Shown: positions 4,252-63,580 of the stretch, one piece after another
Numbering within the stretch: position 1 is the stretch's first letter
Layout of the letters: each line of letters starts with the position of its first letter
Source of the DNA: an uncultured Ureaplasma sp.
GTDB taxonomy: Bacteria > Bacillota_I > Bacilli_A > Mycoplasmatales > Mycoplasmoidaceae
DNA length: 64,000 nucleotides
NCBI GenBank assembly: GCA_902789825.1
Contig: CADAPK010000002.1
Coordinates: 18,275 to 82,274 of the forward strand
Reading direction: 5' to 3'
Program-made: the position numbers and the translations under genes
The notes under the pieces: generated by a model
Databases searched by the model: none
Told to the model about the DNA's origin: nothing
The model's input: only the letters and a program-made list of their open reading frames with translations

Positions 4252-4995
4252 ATGGTTTTAGAATATAATCCTTGGAGTTTACAACCGCAAATTGCTTCGA
4301 TAGCAATTGTTTGTCTCATTCTAATTATTTTTTCACTAACCTATTTCTTTTATTTACAAAAACAAAAAATCAATACAGCACCAAGTGGTTTCGTTTTACT
4401 AGTACAAATATACATAAGTTTTATTCGTAATTTAATTGTTGAAATTTTTGGAATAAAAGGTGAGAAAATGACTGTTTTTTTTCTTTATCTCTTTTCATAT
4501 ATTTGCATATCAAATTTAATTGGAATTGTTGGTTTGTCTAGTCCTACTTCATCATTAACAACGACGCTTTCATTGGGATTAATGATGTGATTTGGTGTTT
4601 TTTTTGTTGGCTTTAAATATCAAAAAATATCATATTTAAAAAATTTTTGTTATTGTTTAAAAATAAAAAATAAAAAAATTCCTTTAATGATAAATCCATT
4701 AGAAGTTGTTTCTTGCATTTCACCCCTGATTTCAATATCATTGCGATTATGAGGAAATATTTTTGCTGGAGGACTAATTTTATCACTTTGATTTTATTTT
4801 ACTAACCATATTTTTGAAAAAGTACCAATTATTGGTGTTATCAATATTTTAGGAGGTTTGACTGTTGCACCACTACATGCATATTTTGATTTGTTGTGTG
4901 GAATTATCCAAACATTAGTCTTCGTCTTATTAACGATGGTTTATTGGACATTGGCAAAAGGTGAAAACATTGCACAAAAAAGCGAACAACTATAG
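4252..4995 (+). CDS. atpB: F-type ATP synthase Fo subunit a
   Basis: Track ORF 4252..4590 extends through TGA codons to TAG 4993-4995 (verified). Contains the conserved ..SLRLWGNIFAG.. arginine motif. 247 aa. Confidence 0.9.
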
Positions 4996-5047
4996 AAAAC
5001 AGCACATTTTTTGTTGAAATAATTTTAATAAATGTTTTCATTTATAA

Positions 5048-5308
<261 letters not shown>

Positions 5309-5315
5309 TGGAGCG

Positions 5316-5939
5316 ATGATAAAAAAAAATACAAAAAGAAAAAAAATAATTATTTTTACTTTAAACTCATTTTTAACATTATTTGTTCCTTTTTTATTGT
5401 CTTCATGCACACCAATAAAAGTTGAGGATATCACGACGAATTTATTACCAAATATTTGAATTTTCATCTCACACCTTATTGCATTCATCGTTTTATTAAT
5501 CGTCATAACTTTTTTAGTTTGAAAACCGACAAAAAAATTTTTGACAAAAAAAAAATCACTCATTAATAAAACTTTAGATGATGCAAAAAAAATTAGTGAT
5601 GAAGCCAACAATAATTTAAATATATCTAAACAAAGCAAAATTAACGCGATTGAAGAAGCAAATATGATTCTCAAAAACGCCCATAATAATGCTTCAAAAA
5701 TTATTAATCATGCTAAAGATGATGCAAAAAAGGAAGCACTAAAAATAATCGAAAGAACTAATTTTTATCTCGAACATAAGGAAAAAATAATGAAAAATGA
5801 TTATCAACAAAATGTTATTAAAACAGCACTCAATATTGTTGAGAATATTTTTTCTGATGAAAAAAATGATAAAAGTAAACAAAAATACATTAATGATATC
5901 TTAAATAAAATTAAAAAGGATTTTAAAAAAAATGCCTAA
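5316..5939 (+). CDS. atpF: F-type ATP synthase Fo subunit b, with lipoprotein-type signal peptide
   Basis: ATG 5316 is in frame with track ORF 5541..5939 through two TGA. N-terminus MIKKNTKRKKIIIFTLNSFLTLFVPFLLSS-C-TP has a lipobox, followed by a TM segment and a long charged helix. Located between atpE and atpH. Confidence 0.8.
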
Positions 5940-6483
5940 TAATTTAATAAATTATGCTTATGCACTTTTTTCTTCAGTAGAAAATAACAACGATAAGCAA
6001 AATATTTTTTTACAAAATATTAAATTAATTGATATTATGCTATCTTTAGAAGAAATGCGATTGTTTATCGATAGAAATTTTTATAACAAAAAAATGATTA
6101 AAAATTTTTTCAAAGAAATATGTTTCGCATTAAAAGTTGATAATTATGTTATTTATTGGTTATGAGTTATCATTGATAACGACGATTTAAATCATTTTAA
6201 AAAAATTTGTCAAGCAACTAAAGAATATTATTTTTCGATTAATAAATTTATAAATGTTGATGTTTTTTCGTCATTTATCCTATCAAAACAGGATGTGAAC
6301 ATAATCGATTCATTTTTTAAAAAATTATTGAAAAAAAAAATATTTTTAAATATTCATCATGAACCAAATTTATTTTGCGGAATTAAAATCAAATTTTTGA
6401 ATAAAACATATGATAATTCAATAAAAGCAAAATTAAATATTTTAAGAAATAAACTATTATTTTCTAACAATGAGTACGAATAA
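5932..6483 (+). CDS. atpH: F-type ATP synthase F1 subunit delta
   Basis: Track ORFs 5932..6165 and 6295..6483 share one frame, and the gap holds one TGA and no TAA/TAG (verified). 183 aa. Called by operon position and size; the sequence is divergent. Confidence 0.75.
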
Positions 6484-8032: not shown

Positions 8033-10719
<2,687 letters not shown>

Positions 10720-10755
10720 AATGTCTTTTATCTTCTAATGTAATAAAATTAATAT

Positions 10756-10992
10756 ATGACACCAATTTTTGTTGTGATGTTTATTTTTGGGATAATCGCT
10801 TTGCTTATTGGATTACTTTTGTCAAGTAGTGGTTCAACGACTAATCTTTTATCAATAGGTGGACAAGATTTAGAATTATTTAAAAAAACAAAAGATCGTG
10901 GTTTTATCAAAATTTTACAAATGGCAATGTTTGTTGTTTCACTTGCATTAATTATTTGCGGATTTATAGCAATGATGATTAATAAAAAATAA
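10756..10992 (+). CDS. secG: Preprotein translocase subunit SecG
   Basis: 78 aa with two TM helices and a Gly/Ser-rich loop (LLSSSGSTTNLLSIGG). Occupies the conserved secG-rnr-smpB arrangement. Confidence 0.75.
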   Translation: MTPIFVVMFIFGIIALLIGLLLSSSGSTTNLLSIGGQDLELFKKTKDRGFIKILQMAMFVVSLALIICGFIAMMINKK

Positions 10993-13145
10993 TGCCATCA
11001 TCGTCTCATAAAAGTGATTATTCTAAATTAATTTTAAAAATCGTAAATAATGAAAAAAGACCAATCCCAATTGGAATAATTTTACGCAAAATATTACTAA
11101 AAATTAAAAACATCAATAAAAAAAAATTTTTTGAAAATATTAACAATCTTTTAAATTCCGCACAATTAATCAAATTAAAAAATAATAAAATTGTTCTTGG
11201 TTACCCAAAAGCAGAAATTGATCGATCAAAATTTTTTATTGGAACAATTTTTTTAAATTCTAAATTAGCAGGTTTTATTACTGAAAAATTTAAAAACGAA
11301 AGTGAATATTTCGTTCATCACACAAATTTAAATGGGGCGTTAAATGGCGATACTGTTGAGTTTGCCTTATTGAAAATTGAAAAAAGTGATCAACGATTAA
11401 AAGATGCAATCGTCACAAAAATAATTAAACGGAAAAAAAAATTTTTTGTCGGTTGTTTCCACAAAAAACAGGATGATTATTTGATTGAGAGTGATGATCA
11501 AAAAATGTATCTTCCTATTAAATTAACAAACACCTGTGATTTAATAGATCAAACAAAATATCTATTTGAAATCACTTCCTTTGAAAAAAATTATTGTTTG
11601 GCAAAAGTAAAAAAAAATATTGGTCATATTTTAGAAACTGGTACGGATGTCTTATCAATTCTTTATGACAATGGTATAAAAATTGATTTCTCACCTGAAT
11701 TATTGGATGAATGTGAAAAAATTTCATCAGATTGTGAATTTGTTTGACAACAATGTCGTAAAGACTTGACAAATTTGAATATTATTACTATTGATCCAAA
11801 AACATCAAAAGATTTTGATGATGCTTTCTATGTTAAAAAAATAAACAATGATTTATTTAAGTTATATGTTTGTATTGCTGATGTTAGCTATTATGCAAAA
11901 TGAAAAAGTAATCTCGACAAAATTGCAAGGCAAAGAGGAAATTCGATTTATCTAATCGATCGTGTTATACCAATGTTACCATTTAAATTATCGGATGATA
12001 TTTGTTCCTTAAATCCAAGTGTTAAGCGACTAACGCTAACATGTGAAATTGATATTGATAAATTAGGGGAGTTTAAAAAAATTAATGTTTACCCATCAAT
12101 TATCAAAAGTCATCAACGATACAATTATGAAGAAATTAATTCATTTTTTGATGATAACGATTTAATTACTAATGAAAAAATGAAGGAATTATTGAACGAT
12201 GCCTATGAATTACATAAAATTTTAGATTTTAAAAAGCAAAAAAGAGGATACATTAATTTTAATATTAGTGAAACAAAAATTATTGTGAACAAAAAATGTG
12301 AACCAATTGAAATTCAATTAAAACAATTAGGTGATGCGCAAAAAATGGTTGAAGATTTTATGCTTGCCGCTAATGAAGCAGTAACAATTTTTGCACACAT
12401 GCATAAATTACCTTTTATTTACCGCATTCATGATTTACCGGAACAAAAAAAAATTAATACTTTTAATATTGAATTACAAAAATTAGGAATTGAAAAAATA
12501 GATTTAAATGGAGATATCAAACCAAGCAAAATCGCTGAATGATTAAAGAAAAATGAAAATAATGAAAACATTGATTTAATAAATATTTTGTTATTAAGAT
12601 TGATGGCAAAAGCTAAATATTCGACAAAAAATACTGGACACTTTGGTTTAGCACTAAAAAATTATACACATTTCACTTCACCAATTAGACGATATGCAGA
12701 TTTAGTAGTACATCATATTTTTTGAATGTTTTTATTTACAAAAAATGAATATAACGATTCGCAAAGGAATGAATTAAAGAATGAATTACAAAAAATATGT
12801 GAAAAAGTTAACGAATGTGAAAGTATTACTGCCCAAACAGAACGTGATGTCAATAATTTTAAATTCGCACAATATATGACAAAATTTATTGGTTGTAAAT
12901 TTAGTGCTAAAGTCTTATCTGTTTCCCCATATGGTTTATTTCTTAAATTGTCTAATTCGATCGAAGGTTTTATTAAAATTAATAATTTGAAGGATGATTT
13001 TTATATTTATGATCAAAATAATTATCAACTAGTTGGAAAAAATAAAAAACAAATTTTTACACTTGGAACAAAAATATATGTCAAATGCATTATTGCAAAC
13101 CCCATTCAAAGGAAGATTGAATTTGATTTTATTCGAAGGTTATAG
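10992..13145 (+). CDS. rnr: Ribonuclease R
   Basis: Three same-frame track ORFs joined by TGA. RNB motif ..[15 protein letters not shown].. and ..[25 protein letters not shown]... C-terminal S1 domain. 717 aa. Confidence 0.92.
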
Positions 13146-16749: not shown

Positions 16750-16833
16750 TGGTGCACTCAAAGGGACTTGAACCCTTACTCACGAGGAATTAGATCCTAA
16801 GTCTAACGCGTCTGCCAGTTCCGCCACGAGTGC
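16750..16833 (-). tRNA. tRNA-Leu (anticodon TAG), long variable arm, encoded CCA
   Basis: Minus-strand read GCACTCGTGGCGGAACTGGCAGACGCGTTAGACTTAGGATCTAA...TTCAAGTCCCTTTGAGTGCACCA. Acceptor GCACTCG/TGAGTGC, anticodon stem TTAGA/TCTAA, loop CT-TAG-GA. Confidence 0.9.
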
Positions 16834-16834
16834 A

Positions 16835-16909
16835 TGGTGCACTGTAAGGGATTCGAACCCTCGACCCAATGATTAAGAGTCACTTGCTCTACCCCTGAGC
16901 TAACAGTGC
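16835..16909 (-). tRNA. tRNA-Lys (anticodon CTT), encoded CCA
   Basis: Minus-strand read GCACTGTTAGCTCAGGGGTAGAGCAAGTGACTCTTAATCATTGGGTCGAGGGTTCGAATCCCTTACAGTGCACCA. Anticodon loop CT-CTT-AA, T-loop TTCGAAT. Confidence 0.9.
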
Positions 16910-22695: not shown

Positions 22696-22814
22696 TCATA
22701 ATTTTTTGTGAAGAAATTTGTATCGCAAAAATTATTTGACGGAATAATCACTAACATTTTCATTTAATATTAAAACTTAAAAAATTATTTATAAAATATA
22801 AATGATTTCTTTCT

Positions 22815-23375
22815 ATGAAAGTTGTTGTTGGTCTTGGCAATATTGGAAAACAATTTGAAAATACGAGACATAATGTTGGTTTTTTAGTTGTTGATTATTT
22901 TTTAAAGAAATTAAAAATAAAACTTGATCAAGAAAATTTTGATTGTTTCTATACACTAGCAAAAATAAATAACGATAATTTTCTTTTTGCTAAACCAACA
23001 ACATTAATGAATTTATCCGGTAATTGTGTTCAAAAAATACTCAATTACTATCATGTTGCTAGTGAAAACCTAATCGTTTTTTCTGATGATTTAGATCAAG
23101 ATTTAGGTAAATATAAAACTCGTACCAGTTGTTCATGTGGTGGACATAATGGGTTAAGAGATATTTCCACAAAAATTAAGACAGATAATTATTTGCATTT
23201 TAAAATAGGAATTGGTCGACCAAAAGATAAAAATATTAAAGATTATGTTTTAGGCAAATTTAGTCGTGATGATTTGAATTGTCTTAAAAAAATTTTTGAA
23301 AAAGCTTATAAATTAATTCAATTAATTAGTTTAAATTCCTCAATTAATATTGCATTAAGCAAATTGAATAATTAG
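22815..23375 (+). CDS. pth: Peptidyl-tRNA hydrolase
   Basis: 186 aa. MKVVVGLGNIGKQFENTRHNVGF.. and ..GGHNGLRDI... Confidence 0.9.
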   Translation: MKVVVGLGNIGKQFENTRHNVGFLVVDYFLKKLKIKLDQENFDCFYTLAKINNDNFLFAKPTTLMNLSGNCVQKILNYYHVASENLIVFSDDLDQDLGKYKTRTSCSCGGHNGLRDISTKIKTDNYLHFKIGIGRPKDKNIKDYVLGKFSRDDLNCLKKIFEKAYKLIQLISLNSSINIALSKLNN

Positions 23376-23385
23376 AAAGATTAAG

Positions 23386-25338
23386 ATGAAAGTTATAAAA
23401 AGAGATGGTCGAATTGTCGATTTTGATGCAAAAAAAATTAGCAATGCTTTAATTGCTTCTATTATTGCAAATAAATTTTCTTTAAAAAGCATAGATGTCA
23501 ACAATATTACTGACATTATTGTTAAAAATTTAAAAGATAAAAAACAAAAAGATTATTCGGTTGAAGCAATTCAAGATATTGTTGTTGCAACACTATACAA
23601 GTTAAAATACTCAAAATTGGCAAAAAAATACGAAACATATAGAAAAGAGCGAAATAAAATCCGTGAACGAAATTCTAATTTAATGAATGTTATCACAAAA
23701 ATTGGGATTCAAACGGATAAGGACAATGCTAATGTTGGTAATAATTTTTCTGCAAAATTACTACGAATCGCTTCCGAAGCAAATAAATGACATATCCTAA
23801 CAAAACTATTACCAATTGATATTGCTCAATACCATGAAAATGGTGATTATTATATTCATGATTTAGATAGCTATAATTTAACAACAAATTGCTTACATTT
23901 ACCGACATATAAATTACTAAAAGAAGGGTTTAATACTGGTTATGGAACAATTTTACCAGCAAAGAATATTGAGTCCGCCGCTGCTATTTTATGCATTGCT
24001 TTACAGGCAAGTCAAAATGATATGTTTGGTGGACAATCCCACCCAAATTTCGATAATGATTTAGCTGATATTGTTGCGTTAACACGAAAAAAGATTATTA
24101 ACACAATTAAAGAAATTGGTGGCGATGTGACAAATAAAAAAATTATTGAAAATATTCTTGAAAAACGAATTAGACAAGCAATGCAAGCAGTAATTTACAA
24201 TTTGAATACAATGCATTCAAGAGCAGGTAGTCAAGTGCCTTTTTCCTCATTAAATATCGGTATCCCAAAAAATGATGATGCTGCTTTAATTTGTAAGTAT
24301 TTATTGCTCGAATATGAAAAAGGACTAGGTAATGGTGAACAACCAATTTTTCCTAATATTATTTTTCGCGTAAAAGATGGAGTTAATAAAAGACCTAATG
24401 ATAAATATTATTATTTATTTGAACTTGCTGCACGTGTCGCTAGTTTACGAATGAATCCAACTTTTATGAATATTGATAGTGATTTTAATAAACAGTACTA
24501 TCAGGAAGGAATTATTCCAGCAACAATGGGGTGCCGTACATATTTAATGTCCAATATTAATGGAAAAGATGGTGTCTATGGACGTGGTAACAATGCCCCA
24601 TGCACAATCAATTTAGTGCGTTTGGCAATTAAAGCAAAAAAAAATCTTAAATTATTTTTTAAATTACTAGAAAAAATGTGTGTTTTGGTTAAAGACCAAT
24701 TATTACATCGCTTTTCAATCCTAAAAAAACTTAAGGTTAAAGATTTGCCTTTTGTTACTGGTCAGCATTTAATGGTTGGATCAGAAAAATTAAATAGGAC
24801 GGATTCAATTGAAGCAGTAATGAAAAATGGAACATGAGCAATTGGTTTTATTGGTTTAGCAGAAACTCTTAAACTTTTAGTTGGTAAACATCATGGTGAA
24901 AGTGAAAAAGCGCAAAAGTTAGGTTTAAAAATCGTTAAAACAATTAGAGATAATTGCGATAAATTTAAGAAAAAATATCATTTAAATTTTAGTTGCTATG
25001 CTACTCCTGCGGAAGGACTTTCTGATAAATTTACCGTTCTTGATGAAAAATTATACGGTTCGATTCCTTGGGTTACAACAAAAGGATTTTACACAAATTC
25101 ATTCCATGTTCCTGTTGATTATCCTTGCTCAATTGCTCATAAAGTTAAAATCGAAGCACCATATCATAAATTGTGCAATGGTGGACATATCTCGTTTATT
25201 GAATTTGATTCATACCCAACTACTAATGATGTAATTAAAGTGGTTACATATGCTTTTGATAAAACAAATATTGGTTATATTGGAATTAATTTTTTTATTC
25301 GTTATTGTGCAGATTGCTCAAATAATAATGAAAATTAG
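23386..25338 (+). CDS. nrdD: Anaerobic (class III) ribonucleoside-triphosphate reductase, large fragment lacking the glycyl-radical loop
   Basis: Three same-frame pieces joined by TGA (verified). N-terminal ATP-cone (MKVIKRDGRIVDFDAKKISNAL..), ..YATPAEGLSDKF.., ..TNSFHVP... Ends ..GINFFIRY-CADC-SNNNEN-TAG (25336-25338), just after the first CxxC of the zinc ribbon. 650 aa. Confidence 0.88.
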
Positions 25339-25846
25339 ATTAGCTGCTATTTTACCTAATTCAAATGTAAATGGAGAAGGCTTACGGAAAGTTTTCTTTT
25401 CACAAGGTTGTCGTCATCATTGTCAAGGATGTTTTAATCAACATACTTGACCGTTTAATGGTGGAAAAATATGTGACTGTGACCAATTGATTAACGAAAC
25501 ACTAGAAGAAACATATTTATCAGGTGTAACATTTTGTGGTGGAGAACCATTCCAACAACCTATTCCTTTTGCATATTTAGCTAAAAAATTTAAAAAAAAT
25601 AAAATTAATATTTGATGCTTTACTGGCTATACATGGGAAGAATTACAAAATTTAATGAAAGATGATAGCAATATTAAAGATCTATTAACAAATCTGGATG
25701 TGTTAATTGATGGAAGATTTGATAAAACAAAAATGAATACGAAAGATAAATTTCCTAGTACAACTAATCAACGAGTTATTGATGTCCAAAAAAGTTTGAA
25801 AATTGGCAAAGTTGTTTTGTGAAAAAAACAATTTGTTTTAGTATAA
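25328..25846 (+). CDS. nrdG: Anaerobic ribonucleotide reductase activating protein (radical SAM)
   Basis: ATG 25328 overlaps the nrdD stop. ..NVNGEGLRKVFFSQG-CRHHCQGC-FN.. (CxxxCxxC) and ..GVTFCGGEP... Three in-frame TGA. TAA 25844-25846 (verified). 172 aa. Confidence 0.88.
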
Positions 25847-25854
25847 TACTCATT

Positions 25855-26034
25855 ATGAAAACTGTTTATCTAAAACCACACCAAAAAGTTTGTCCTGTTT
25901 GCGGTTCAACACATATCATTGAGATAAGTAGAATAACTGGTTATTTAGCATTTAATGAACGATTTGGTAGTGGTAAAACTAAAGAAAGAAGTAAACGAAT
26001 AGATCATAACAATAAGCACAAAAAAATTTATTAA
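25855..26034 (+). CDS. Stand-alone NrdD C-terminal module: second zinc-ribbon knuckle plus glycyl-radical loop
   Basis: 59 codons in the same frame as nrdD. MKTVYLKPHQKV-CPVC-GSTHIIEIS-RITGY-LAFNERFGSGKTKERSKRIDH.. matches the CxxC..RxxGY..basic tail that normally ends a single-chain NrdD. The track lists it from GTG 25819; ATG 25855 is preferred. Confidence 0.75.
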   Translation: MKTVYLKPHQKVCPVCGSTHIIEISRITGYLAFNERFGSGKTKERSKRIDHNNKHKKIY

Positions 26035-26071
26035 ATCTAAAGTGTTTCTTTTGTTTTAACGATTTTTAAAC

Positions 26072-26653
26072 CTAATTTTTACTTAACGAATGGCAGTGAC
26101 GACAACGAGCAGAATATATTTTTTTATCACCAATTACAATTTGCTTTTTGCTATTAATATTTGTTCGCTCTGTGAAAGAAGCTTCGGCACCACAAATTGA
26201 ACAAATTGCTTTTAATTTAGTTACCTTTTCAGCAGTAATTATTAGTTCTTTCATTGTTGAAAAAGGTTTACCATTAAAATCCATATCTAATCCAGAAACT
26301 ATGACAATGTATTTTTTATTTGCCAAATAATTACAAACTCGTGATAAATTTTTATCAAAAAATTGGGCTTCATCAATTGCGATAACATCAATTTTTTCCT
26401 TTTTGTTTTTAATATATTTAAATATTTCATTGGAATTAGAAATAATAATTGATGATAATTTTTCCCCATTTCGTGATGTCGCATATCTTGGTGATCTTGT
26501 ATCAATTTTTGGTGTAAACAATAAATAATGTGCATCGCAATAATTAAGACGATTCAATCGGTGTATTAATTCTTCAGTTTTACCAGAAAACATTGGCCCA
26601 CAAATAACTTCTATTCGACCTCTTGAGACACCAAAAGAATTTATTTTTGCCAT
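26072..26653 (-). CDS. tdk: Thymidine kinase
   Basis: 193 aa. P-loop GPMFSGKTEEL and C-terminal zinc motif ..CSICG..CRHCH... Confidence 0.93.
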   Translation of the reverse strand: MAKINSFGVSRGRIEVICGPMFSGKTEELIHRLNRLNYCDAHYLLFTPKIDTRSPRYATSRNGEKLSSIIISNSNEIFKYIKNKKEKIDVIAIDEAQFFDKNLSRVCNYLANKKYIVIVSGLDMDFNGKPFSTMKELIITAEKVTKLKAICSICGAEASFTERTNINSKKQIVIGDKKIYSARCRHCHSLSKN

Positions 26654-26668
26654 AATGAATATTATAAA

Positions 26669-27766
26669 TTAGACATTAAAACGATAGTAACAAACATCAC
26701 CATCTTTAACAATGTAATCTTTACCTTCAATTCTCAATAATCCTTTGTTTTTTACTTCATTCTCGGATTTTAATTTAATTAAATCGTTTGCATTCATCAC
26801 TTCAACACGGATAAAACCTTTTTTTATGTCGCTATGAATTAAACCACCACAATCTGGGGCCTTCATTCCATTAACAAATGTTCATGCCTTAACCTCGTCT
26901 TTTCCAAATGTAAAAAAAGATGATAAATTTAGTAATTTATAGGATTTGGTAATCAATTTATCTAATCCCGATTCGTTTAAATTTAATTCTTTAATTATTT
27001 TGCTCTTTTCTATAAGTGGCAATGTAGAAAGTTGTTGTTCGAAGCGAATAGAAATAGGTAAAACTATATCTTTTTTACTAACAAATGCTTTTAATTTTTG
27101 ATAGTAAAGATTTGCTGTTGGGTTAGTTAAATCATTTTCATCGATATTAGCAACATATAATGTCGGCTTAATCGTTAAAAAATTATCTAATTTGATTAGA
27201 TCTTTTTCAGCAGATGATAATTCCAAATCTTTTAATAATTTATTTTGTAATAAATGATTTTTAATTTTTGCATATATATTGTTAAATTTGACTGATATTT
27301 TATCACCCGATAAAGCTTTAGAATGAACACGTGAAATTTTCTTATTAACAAGATCTAAATCTGAAATAATCAATTCCATATTTATAATTTCAACATCTCT
27401 TTGGGGGTCAACATTATTGTATACATGTGTTATTCCTTTATCATTAAAACATCTTACAATGTGACATATCGCACTAACTTCACGAATGTTTGCTAAAAAT
27501 TGATTGCCTAATCCTTCTCCTTTTGACGCCCCTTTTACTAAACCAGCAATGTCAATGAATTGACAAATAGCTGGTGTTGTTTTTTGGGGATTAATTATAT
27601 TTTTCAATTGCTCTAATCGCATATCAGGAACGGCAACAACACCAATATTGGGTGTAATTGTTGCAAAAGGATAATTGGAAGCATCAACATTTAAATTAGT
27701 AATGGCATTAAAAAGAGTTGATTTTCCTACATTCGGTAAACCAACGATTCCAATTGATAATTTCAT
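26669..27766 (-). CDS. ychF: Ribosome-binding ATPase YchF
   Basis: Two same-frame track ORFs joined by TGA. GIVGLPNVGKSTLFNA and a C-terminal TGS/YchF domain (..VRAWT-like..GKDYIVKDGDV..). 365 aa. Confidence 0.92.
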
Positions 27767-50748: not shown

Positions 50749-50822
50749 TGGAGCGGGTAATGAGAATTGAACCCACACTAATAACTTGGAAGGCTATTGT
50801 TCTGCCGTTAAACTATACCCGC
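50749..50822 (-). tRNA. tRNA-Gly (anticodon TCC), encoded CCA
   Basis: Minus-strand read GCGGGTATAGTTTAACGGCAGAACAATAGCCTTCCAAGTTATTAGTGTGGGTTCAATTCTCATTACCCGCTCCA. Anticodon loop CT-TCC-AA. Confidence 0.9.
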
Positions 50823-50825
50823 GAT

Positions 50826-50911
50826 TGGTGCTGAAGAAGGGACTTGAACCCATACGATATTGCTATCACAGAATTTTAAGTCCTGTGCGTCTACCATTCC
50901 GCCACTTCAGC
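50826..50911 (-). tRNA. tRNA-Leu (anticodon TAA), long variable arm, encoded CCA
   Basis: GCTGAAGTGGCGGAATGGTAGACGCACAGGACTTAAAATTCTGTGATAGCAATATCGTATGGGTTCAAGTCCCTTCTTCAGCACCA. Anticodon stem CAGGA/TTCTG, loop CT-TAA-AA. Confidence 0.9.
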
Positions 50912-50914
50912 ATT

Positions 50915-50989
50915 TGGTGTCCCAATGGAGATTCGAACTCCAGACCCCTTCATTAAAAGTGAAGTGCTCTGCCTCTGAGCTACTGGGAC
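50915..50989 (-). tRNA. tRNA-Lys (anticodon TTT), encoded CCA
   Basis: GTCCCAGTAGCTCAGAGGCAGAGCACTTCACTTTTAATGAAGGGGTCTGGAGTTCGAATCTCCATTGGGACACCA. Anticodon stem CTTCA/TGAAG, loop CT-TTT-AA. Confidence 0.9.
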
Positions 50990-50994
50990 ATATT

Positions 50995-51069
50995 TGGCTG
51001 GGTAGGTTGGATTCGAACCAACGCATGTCAGAATCAAAATCTGATGCCTTACCGCTTGGCTACAACCCA
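50995..51069 (-). tRNA. tRNA-Gln (anticodon TTG), encoded CCA
   Basis: TGGGTTGTAGCCAAGCGGTAAGGCATCAGATTTTGATTCTGACATGCGTTGGTTCGAATCCAACCTACCCAGCCA. Anticodon stem TCAGA/TCTGA, loop TT-TTG-AT. Confidence 0.88.
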
Positions 51070-51074
51070 ATTTA

Positions 51075-51161
51075 TGGTGGACATGGATGGATTTGAACCA
51101 ACGAAACTAGGAAAGTAACTGATTTACAGTCAGCGTGCTTTAGCCACTTGCTTACATGTCC
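51075..51161 (-). tRNA. tRNA-Tyr (anticodon GTA), long variable arm, encoded CCA
   Basis: GGACATGTAAGCAAGTGGCTAAAGCACGCTGACTGTAAATCAGTTACTTTCCTAGTTTCGTTGGTTCAAATCCATCCATGTCCACCA. Anticodon loop CT-GTA-AA. Confidence 0.9.
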
Positions 51162-63055: not shown

Positions 63056-63580
63056 TTAATAGAATTTGTTAAATGAATTCTTATGTTCACATACATCACA
63101 AACAATGGGTTTATTTTTGATTTTTAGTTGCCCACATTTAGAACATTTTCATTTATTGCTTTTATTTATTTTATTTTTATAAATCTTAATTTTTTTAAGA
63201 AAATCTTTAAGTAGTTTTTCATGATTTTCTTCAATTTTTGCAACATTTAAAAAAAGTGTTTCGATCTTTTTATATCCATCTTTTTTAGCATCAATTGCAT
63301 ATTGTTTGTACATTTTAGTTCATTCATTGTTTTCGTTTTTTATCGAATTATGTAAATTTTCTAAAGTAGAATTAATTTTTCCATTATTTATAAGTTTAAA
63401 TCATATTTTTGCATGTTCTTTTTCATTATTAGCTAATTCAAGAAAAAAATTACTAATTTTGTAAAAACCTTCTTTTTGTGCCATGCTTGCGAAAAATGTG
63501 TATTGATTTCTTGCTTGCGATTCACCAGCAAAAGCCGATCATAAATTTTTATAGGTTTTTGTTGCTTCAAATTTCTTCAT
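63056..63580 (-). CDS. rbr: Rubrerythrin (ferritin-like diiron domain plus C-terminal rubredoxin-like CxxC..CxxC)
   Basis: Not in the track (several TGA). MKKFEATKTYKNLWSAFAGESQARNQYTFFASMAQKEGF..ANNEKEHAKIW.. and C-terminal ..WKCSKCGQ..PIVCDVCEH... 174 aa. Confidence 0.8.

Follow-up and report, generated by a model that had tools for sequence, protein, structure and literature searches.

An ancient split of the anaerobic ribonucleotide reductase NrdD in Mollicutes places the glycyl radical loop on a separate small protein

In a 64,000-nucleotide (nt) stretch of DNA from an uncultured Ureaplasma sp. (assembly GCA_902789825.1, contig CADAPK010000002.1, positions 18,275 to 82,274; the window hereafter), the class III (anaerobic) ribonucleotide reductase NrdD is encoded in two pieces. 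A long open reading frame (ORF) encodes a body that ends within the C-terminal zinc ribbon, the activase gene nrdG follows, and a 59-codon ORF (the mini-ORF) encodes the remainder of the ribbon and the radical glycine. We conclude that the split NrdD is real, ancient, selected, and undescribed, and we consider it probable (about 0.78) that the locus specifies a genuine, anciently fixed reductase of two polypeptides. An earlier note on this DNA, made from the letters alone, had proposed that the enzyme is assembled from a radical-less body of 650 residues and a separate radical peptide. Our comparison supports this proposal: the split is clade-wide and monophyletic, the architecture is conserved with both pieces under selection, the peptide persists where it is unlinked from the body, and there is no route by which the pieces are rejoined.

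The window is AT-rich (25.8% GC) and reads TGA as tryptophan (translation table 4). Under this code, the nrdD body (23386-25338, + strand) is an uninterrupted frame of 650 residues, assigned by translation, Pfam, NF005497, and structure alignment, and it comprises an ATP-cone (about 23386-23655), a 10-stranded barrel, and a first zinc knuckle. The presumed thiyl-radical cysteine, Cys383, is encoded at 24532-24534, and the first knuckle, C641-A-D-C644 (25306-25317), lies at the extreme C-terminus (...FFIRYCADCSNNNEN*; ...GINFFIRYCADCSNNNEN). The frame stops at TAG 25336-25338, six codons past this first CxxC, and the body has neither a second knuckle nor a radical glycine. The gene nrdG (25328-25846, + strand) encodes a radical S-adenosylmethionine (radical-SAM) activase of 172 residues with a CX3CX2C cluster motif, C28-RHH-C32-QG-C35 (CRHHCQGC, 25409-25432). 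It starts inside the final nrdD codons (ATGAAAATTAG, 25328-25338), an 11-nt overlap that suggests translational coupling of body and activase. With 8 nt between the end of nrdG (25846) and its start, the mini-ORF (25855-26034, + strand) encodes the 59-residue protein MKTVYLKPHQKVCPVCGSTHIIEISRITGYLAFNERFGSGKTKERSKRIDHNNKHKKIY, which contains a second zinc knuckle, C13-P-V-C16 (25891-25902), and a glycine loop, R26-I-T-G29-Y30 (25930-25944, with the Gly29 codon at 25939-25941), followed by a basic C-terminal tail. These translations agree with the earlier note on the extent and stop of the nrdD frame and on an nrdG gene that carries CRHHCQGC and overlaps that stop, an identification that TIGR02491 also supports.

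The two pieces together account for one complete NrdD. On the Pfam NRDD model (PF13597, 562 positions), the body covers positions 1-516 (E 1e-160) and the mini-ORF positions 517-562 (E 1.6e-8), so that they tile the model without gap or overlap and the mini-ORF corresponds to its last 46 positions, as the earlier note had supposed when it read the second CxxC, the RITGY loop, and the basic tail as an NrdD C-terminus. The ATP-cone of the body was recognized by Pfam (E 3.6e-17), and the body scored 905 bits against NF005497 (cutoff 764) and 541 bits against TIGR02487 (cutoff 326). The mini-ORF matched the final ~45 positions of seven NrdD models (NCBIfam), and a Pfam scan at E<=1 placed it only in NRDD and zinc-ribbon families, with no match to PF01228 (Gly_radical, the C-terminal domain of pyruvate formate-lyase, PFL). 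The nrdG product scored 143.9 bits against TIGR02491, above the equivalog cutoff of 126.1, with the CX3CX2C motif present, and matched Pfam Fer4_12 (E 1.5e-39).

Structure comparison locates the break. The concatenated body and mini-ORF proteins are collinear with the solved NrdDs 8p23 (Prevotella copri, E 4e-143), 9d3x, and T4 1h78 through both knuckles and the glycine loop, and the mini-ORF takes the extreme C-terminus, which is where the earlier note had expected an alignment to characterized enzymes to put it. In P. copri NrdD (PcNrdD), the barrel consists of residues 123-671 and the glycyl radical domain of residues 676-739, with a structural zinc site and Gly711 (PMC11226230). The knuckle C641/C644 of the body aligns with PcNrdD C684/C687, and the break maps between PcNrdD Cys687 and Cys699, counted along the 8p23 alignment. 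Body residues C169, C383, and N402 align with T4 Cys79, Cys290 (1h78), and Asn311 and are invariant in split and unsplit relatives. The window differs from a canonical NrdD in two respects: the RxxGY motif with the radical glycine (here RITGY) is not on the barrel chain but on a separate 59-residue ORF, and the four cysteines of the presumed zinc site are divided between chains, with C641/C644 on the body and C13/C16 on the mini-ORF.

We followed the split across relatives with searches for the mini-ORF protein and the body protein and with a scan of one genome per GTDB species using an alignment of mini-proteins. The mini-ORF search returned 25 protein clusters, all stand-alone, of 54-90 residues and 60-97% identity (NCBI, ENA, JGI, and Logan assemblies). 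We note that many short matches in a search of 1.84 billion proteins were contig-end fragments or chimeric gene calls with both knuckles and barrel residues, and these were not counted as stand-alone. About 60 clusters (644-673 residues, 62-99% identity) were returned for the body, including Candidatus Malacoplasma girerdii and metagenome-assembled genomes (MAGs) labeled Mycoplasmataceae or Mycoplasmoidaceae. RYCxxC was present near the end of every split Mollicute body (58/58), with 0-27 residues after it, and the glycine loop was present in none. The next-best matches to the body were unsplit Clostridium proteins (~60% identity, 700-705 residues), in which the single chain reads ...RYCxxCGTYLxxxxxCPKCGSxxIQGISRVTGYLSLDERFG... 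In a neighbor-joining tree of 118 bodies, the 58 split proteins formed one clade apart from the 60 unsplit proteins (bootstrap 199/200); P0134, seemingly an exception, is unsplit but truncated and belongs with the unsplit group. That the split bodies form one clade in this tree suggests one ancestral event.

The scan of GTDB species returned 80 loci, which we compared with the three window proteins under code 4. All Mollicute loci among them were split, whereas clostridial and other Bacillota loci had a contiguous nrdD followed by nrdG. The order body, nrdG, mini gene occurred in 19 species-level Mollicute genomes, where nrdG and the mini gene are separated by 8 to 1230 nt; a survey of nrdD loci of the kind the earlier note had proposed recovers the arrangement it described. 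The placement of nrdG in the gap, to which that note had also drawn attention, holds in the window and commonly in relatives but is not universal. In about eight loci, neither nrdD nor nrdG lies within 5 kb of the mini gene, whose neighbors are ordinary housekeeping genes. In Mycoplasma sp. BAAFS1 (complete genome CP091280), the body gene is at 9171-11177 and the mini gene at 649675-649887 on the same strand, ~16 kb apart across the record start.

Individual loci varied in further ways. The genome nearest to the window, a goat-reticulum MAG (JAFSSC010000005), is 98% identical in the body and 97% identical in the mini-protein. In the goat-reticulum MAG GCA_017448105.1 (L001:4763-5944, the same locus as L009), a gene for a 393-residue DUF2130 protein lies between nrdG and the mini gene, and the synteny is otherwise like that of the window (rplK-rplA-pth-nrdD-nrdG-...-tdk-ychF). 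Candidatus Malacoplasma girerdii CP007711 (L006, 53803-63815) has a truncated body of 670 residues and nrdG, with phosphotransferase system genes directly after them. No mini gene was found within 4 kb of nrdD-nrdG in this genome, nor was one called, and the radical peptide must be elsewhere in the genome or unannotated. A short Mollicute contig carries two intact mini paralogs of 80 and 72 residues (L191:135-377 and 1340-1558), 1 kb apart and beside glyS, and of the two mini genes in MAG SUG1262 (L036, L075), one is linked to nrdD-nrdG and the other is on a different contig.

The mini-ORF has the properties of a genuine gene. C13, P14, C16, R26, T28, G29, Y30, R36, K41, E44, R48, H51, and N52 do not vary across the mini-proteins of 27 genomes, all of which keep the CPxC and RxTGY motifs. 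The ratio of nonsynonymous to synonymous substitution rates (dN/dS) was 0.04-0.17 for most pairs (Nei-Gojobori, 48-codon core), even at dS 0.2-0.5, with an exception of 0.56 in 1 of 15 computable pairs; these values indicate strong purifying selection on the mini gene. No start other than the ATG at 25855 is conserved. A TATAAT box (25842-25847, + strand, scan match 10/12) overlaps the nrdG stop 7 nt 5' of this ATG and is kept in the window and in two related loci (L007, L008), and other relatives have TATAAT and/or an AGGAG-type ribosome-binding site before the mini-ORF. From its position, the TATAAT box is a possible promoter of a leaderless mini-ORF transcript.

These observations suggest how a divided enzyme could work. 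The 650-residue body would supply the ATP-cone, the catalytic barrel (Cys169, Cys383, and Asn402), and the first CxxC of the structural zinc ribbon, while the 59-residue peptide would supply the second CxxC, the RITGY loop with the radical Gly29, and the basic tail. In one-chain NrdD, the basic tail runs across the barrel surface. The zinc ribbon would be built from one CxxC per chain, and the enzyme would be an obligate heteromer. NrdG would abstract a hydrogen from Gly29 on the small chain, and Gly29 would then hand the radical to Cys383, from which it would reach the ribonucleotide, as in the NrdDs of E. coli, T4, and Prevotella copri. Since the new termini would sit in the loop between the knuckles, the break needs no structural rearrangement. 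A terminal CxxC without a partner would be expected to decay, so among the evidence available, its retention argues most strongly for an intermolecular Zn(Cys)4 clasp, and we infer that both chains share such a site. The Rad50 zinc hook, in which two CxxC motifs from two chains hold an intermolecular Cys4 zinc, offers an analogy only for the inferred shared zinc of split NrdD, as there is no homology.

Compared with one-chain NrdD/NrdG systems (E. coli, phage T4, Prevotella copri 8P23, and Clostridium spp.), the window has the same ATP-cone, barrel, catalytic Cys and Asn residues, four-Cys ribbon, RxxGY loop, basic tail, and radical-SAM activase. It differs in that the last ~46 residues are a separate gene product, in that the zinc site would have to be intermolecular, and in that nrdG, usually found after a complete nrdD, lies between the two pieces. 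Throughout a Mollicute clade, the split is fixed. The closest functional parallels are the spare parts of PFL, E. coli GrcA/YfiD and phage T4 Y06I, each a small stand-alone glycyl-radical protein that has to insert into a barrel encoded elsewhere, as the mini-ORF product would. The window peptide shares this general character, with RITGY in a protein of 59 residues that is stand-alone in 27 genomes and under purifying selection. Phage-encoded versions exist for PFL (Y06I) and possibly for the mini-ORF (L003 and L087, described below). However, GrcA is homologous to the C-terminus of PFL, whereas the mini-ORF matches only NRDD, and the mini-ORF, unlike GrcA, brings half of a zinc site. GrcA also rescues a full-length PFL after oxygen cleavage, whereas the only NrdD bodies seen at the window and related loci have no radical domain of their own, so that none of these loci offers a complete parent enzyme whose cleaved domain the peptide would replace. 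Because the window body never has its own radical domain, the peptide would be obligatory, unlike GrcA.

Catalytic subunits in pieces are also known from phage reductases, including Aeh1 nrdA split by mobE, T4 nrdD with its group I intron, and the nrdD genes of Lactococcus phage 949 and phiAS4. The Aeh1 NrdA pieces function as two polypeptides, according to the summary in PMC3653736. These phage cases involve homing endonucleases, introns, inteins, or recent frameshifts in single phages, at other positions and without isolating the radical site (PMC3653736). In contrast, the window split is cellular and clade-wide, has the activase gene in its gap, and has no detected mobile element: the gap holds nrdG, and Rfam and Pfam searches returned no intron, intein, or endonuclease gene. 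Literature searches found no description of a split NrdD with a separate radical peptide, of an NrdD in mycoplasmas with such a split, or of a spare part for a ribonucleotide reductase, and a June 2026 review knows spare-part proteins only for formate-lyases (PMC13450708), which fits the remark in the earlier note that the architecture seemed undescribed. In the literature on Candidatus M. girerdii/'M. trichamica', the gene passes for an ordinary anaerobic reductase (PMC10557491), and the peptide appears in databases as 'hypothetical protein' or 'ribonucleoside-triphosphate reductase'.

Stand-alone radical peptides of NrdD type also occurred outside the Mollicute loci. A 129-kb phage-like contig read with the standard code contains an independent nrdD split at the same position between the knuckles (L167:2732-6658, the same in L168). 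Its order is a 657-residue body ending in ECRQCGTLVRE, four small unrelated genes (one a methyltransferase), a 59-residue peptide (MIVTEQKAIECPSCKSTDIRYIQRITGYL...), and nrdG. This body is ~42% identical to the window body and closest to unsplit proteins. Because an independent split occurred at the same place, we consider the position between the knuckles structurally permissive. Two further loci look viral and are putative Mollicute phage contigs. The first (L003:5001-5207, on the 42-kb ENA scaffold_1976, also L004; code 4) carries a lone mini gene on a phage-like contig with PHROG matches to an exonuclease, a Doc-like toxin, a (DNA) methyltransferase, and phrog_850. In the second (L087:~5995-6153, on the 43-kb IMG/VR contig IMGVR_UViG_3300001598_000013; code 4), a lone mini gene lies between a diversity-generating-retroelement cassette (reverse transcriptase at 4484-5542) and a gene for a 1601-residue protein. 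Neither an nrdD body nor nrdG was found within the readable 5-6 kb flanks of L003 and L087, and the L087 contig was absent from the results of a pattern-based viral scan with the split-body alignment. Each of these two phage-like peptides resembles the peptide of a particular host subclade, and the mini gene may be a phage auxiliary gene that supplies the radical module alone.

Other stand-alone proteins were more distant. Methanomicrobiales yielded 289 clusters of stand-alone proteins of ~120 residues with several CxxC motifs and an NrdD-type C-terminus (...SRVTGYLQxVSGWNAGKQQELKDR), annotated 'oxidoreductase' or 'oxygen-sensitive ribonucleoside-triphosphate reductase-like protein'. In Methanolacinia petrolearia CP002117 (L187:7001-8265; compare L188), the gene for the ~120-residue protein overlaps a CbiZ plus zf-like gene, with no nrdD or nrdG within 7 kb; a look-up of P0341 (Methanofollis) found no record. 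An Asgard archaeon MAG encodes a 79-residue stand-alone peptide of NrdD type (L169:6001-6240) among Ras/Roc and Roadblock genes with no nrdD nearby, which NCBI names 'anaerobic ribonucleoside-triphosphate reductase'. A 62-residue peptide of NrdD type (L171:5073-5261) lies within a phage-like run of tiny ORFs, also with no nrdD nearby.

We considered whether the two pieces could be artefactual or could be rejoined into one chain. The source organism is uncultured and MAGs can contain frameshifts, so an assembly or sequencing artefact or a decaying pseudogene is conceivable in principle. However, three complete genomes and independent assemblies from NCBI, ENA, JGI, and Logan have the same layout. 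Neither piece is disrupted, purifying selection acts on both, and they are separated by a whole gene, not by a frameshift; the comparative data refute this explanation, and we give it almost no weight. Restoration of one chain by a self-splicing intron, protein trans-splicing, or ribosomal bypass across nrdG has precedents in the group I intron of T4 nrdD and in other phage nrdD genes interrupted by introns or inteins (PMC3653736), and the body and mini-ORF happen to share a reading frame in the window. The earlier note had pointed out this shared frame, and it is indeed present, but it is not meaningful as a feature: body and mini gene share a frame in only 3 of the 19 linked loci and not in the nearest relatives, and since the relation is not conserved, we regard it as coincidence. 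An Rfam search of 22700-26700 at E<=1 returned no family, and thus no group I or II intron, and Pfam identified no intein, Hint, or homing-endonuclease domain in the three proteins. The body has 6 residues past the first knuckle and the mini-protein 12 before the second, which therefore leaves no room for split-intein halves. A conserved nrdG ORF takes up the whole gap, some genomes have the pieces 1.2-16 kb apart, and bypass is excluded because the mini gene is unlinked in some of them. We regard rejoining as extremely improbable and effectively refuted.

Given two polypeptides, the alternatives concern what the separate peptide does. One is that it is not a stable subunit but a freely exchanging, autonomously activated glycyl-radical cofactor, an analog of GrcA/YfiD for NrdD. 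NrdG would activate the free peptide, which would load empty or oxygen-damaged bodies, and cells and phages would tune deoxynucleoside triphosphate (dNTP) synthesis through peptide supply; we consider both the exchange and this scheme of supply possible but doubtful. Mini genes apart from nrdD and nrdG in several genomes, the paired paralogs of L191 and MAG SUG1262, and the mini genes of L003 and L087, with no body or nrdG in the flanks that could be read, are in its favor, as is the high mobility of the radical domain in one-chain NrdD, which must leave the barrel for activation (PMC11226230); in PcNrdD, this domain is invisible in dATP-inhibited states (PMC11226230). Nevertheless, zinc half-sites conserved this strictly in both chains suggest that the complex is tight and specific, L003 and L087 are only putatively viral and complete, and a free glycyl radical would be unstable. 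The strongest form of the proposal makes the 59-residue protein the first autonomous glycyl-radical cofactor for a ribonucleotide reductase, exchangeable and separately activated, which would re-arm an intact 75-kDa body after oxygen damage and which Mollicute phages would carry to boost host dNTP synthesis. We put this forward tentatively, with the odds against it.

It is also possible, although not the likelier reading, that the split is selectively neutral. A duplication or rearrangement would have detached the last 46 residues, the separation would have been tolerated as the domain binds tightly, and drift would have fixed the split in small-population Mollicutes without any gain in regulation or from a spare part. 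There was one origin of the split, in a genome-reduced and drift-prone lineage, and the body tails past the first knuckle and the N-extensions of the peptide vary in length. Phage ribonucleotide reductase genes that are split yet working are also known (Aeh1 nrdA, as cited in PMC3653736). On the other hand, the same break occurs independently in the phage-like contig L167, and it is difficult to see why phage-borne and duplicated mini genes would exist if a separate peptide had no value; we consider both points suggestive. Such copies fit a module with a dosage effect, acting on a body encoded elsewhere. A spare-part advantage is plausible, with circumstantial support from the phage and paralog copies, and one possible benefit is that oxygen would destroy only a 7-kDa peptide and spare a 75-kDa enzyme. 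The shared zinc clamp and cheap, replaceable module suggested in the earlier note are consistent with the strictly kept half-sites, the phage-borne and duplicated mini genes, and the mobile radical domain.

Several points weigh against the two-polypeptide enzyme that we favor. Binding of the chains, the shared zinc, and joint activity are predictions from sequence, and expression of the peptide is read only from signals conserved in relatives. A promoter and terminator scan of 22700-26700 found promoter-like sites at the chance frequency of shuffled sequence and no terminators; because the scan is at chance level in AT-rich DNA, the case for expression rests on conservation in relatives. AlphaFold2 modeled the peptide alone with a predicted local distance difference test score (pLDDT) of 57.8 and with helices instead of the expected zinc-ribbon hairpin, a poor fold that would be compatible with folding upon binding. 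Body-tail length correlated with peptide N-extension length (Spearman 0.47, p 0.04), but this relation is weak and uncorrected for phylogeny; it might reflect contact between the two. Finally, the window organism may hold a second full-length nrdD or another reductase outside the regions covered.

Elsewhere in the window, an ORF on the - strand (63056-63580) begins MKKFEATKTYKNLWSAFAGESQARNQYTFFASMAQKEGF... and looks like a rubrerythrin, which would fit an oxygen-stressed anaerobe. Two tRNA clusters were found on the - strand, Gly-Leu-Lys-Gln-Tyr (50749-51161) and Leu-Lys (16750-16909), and beyond these tRNAs, no Rfam family reached the gathering score in the 64-kb window.

To our knowledge, described glycyl radical enzymes carry the radical glycine on the barrel chain, with the GrcA/YfiD repair protein of PFL as the only known exception. 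A natural, clade-wide split NrdD would show the radical domain of a ribonucleotide reductase working in trans. It would provide a natural system for studying how the buried glycine loop exits the barrel to reach the activase, whether the activase is able to act on a free domain, what role the C-terminal zinc site plays, and whether exchange of one small part is enough to repair oxygen damage. Should phages be confirmed to carry the peptide by itself, these copies would represent a new type of auxiliary metabolic gene. If the peptide does act as an exchangeable radical cartridge, detachable radical domains would seem to be a widespread class that has been overlooked, given the stand-alone peptides in Methanomicrobiales, in an Asgard archaeon, and in an independent phage lineage. 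The split also matters for annotation, in which the peptide is a 'hypothetical protein' or missed and the truncated body is named a complete NrdD. Because of this, whether host-associated Mollicutes, including Candidatus Malacoplasma girerdii, have a working reductase is being judged on half an enzyme.

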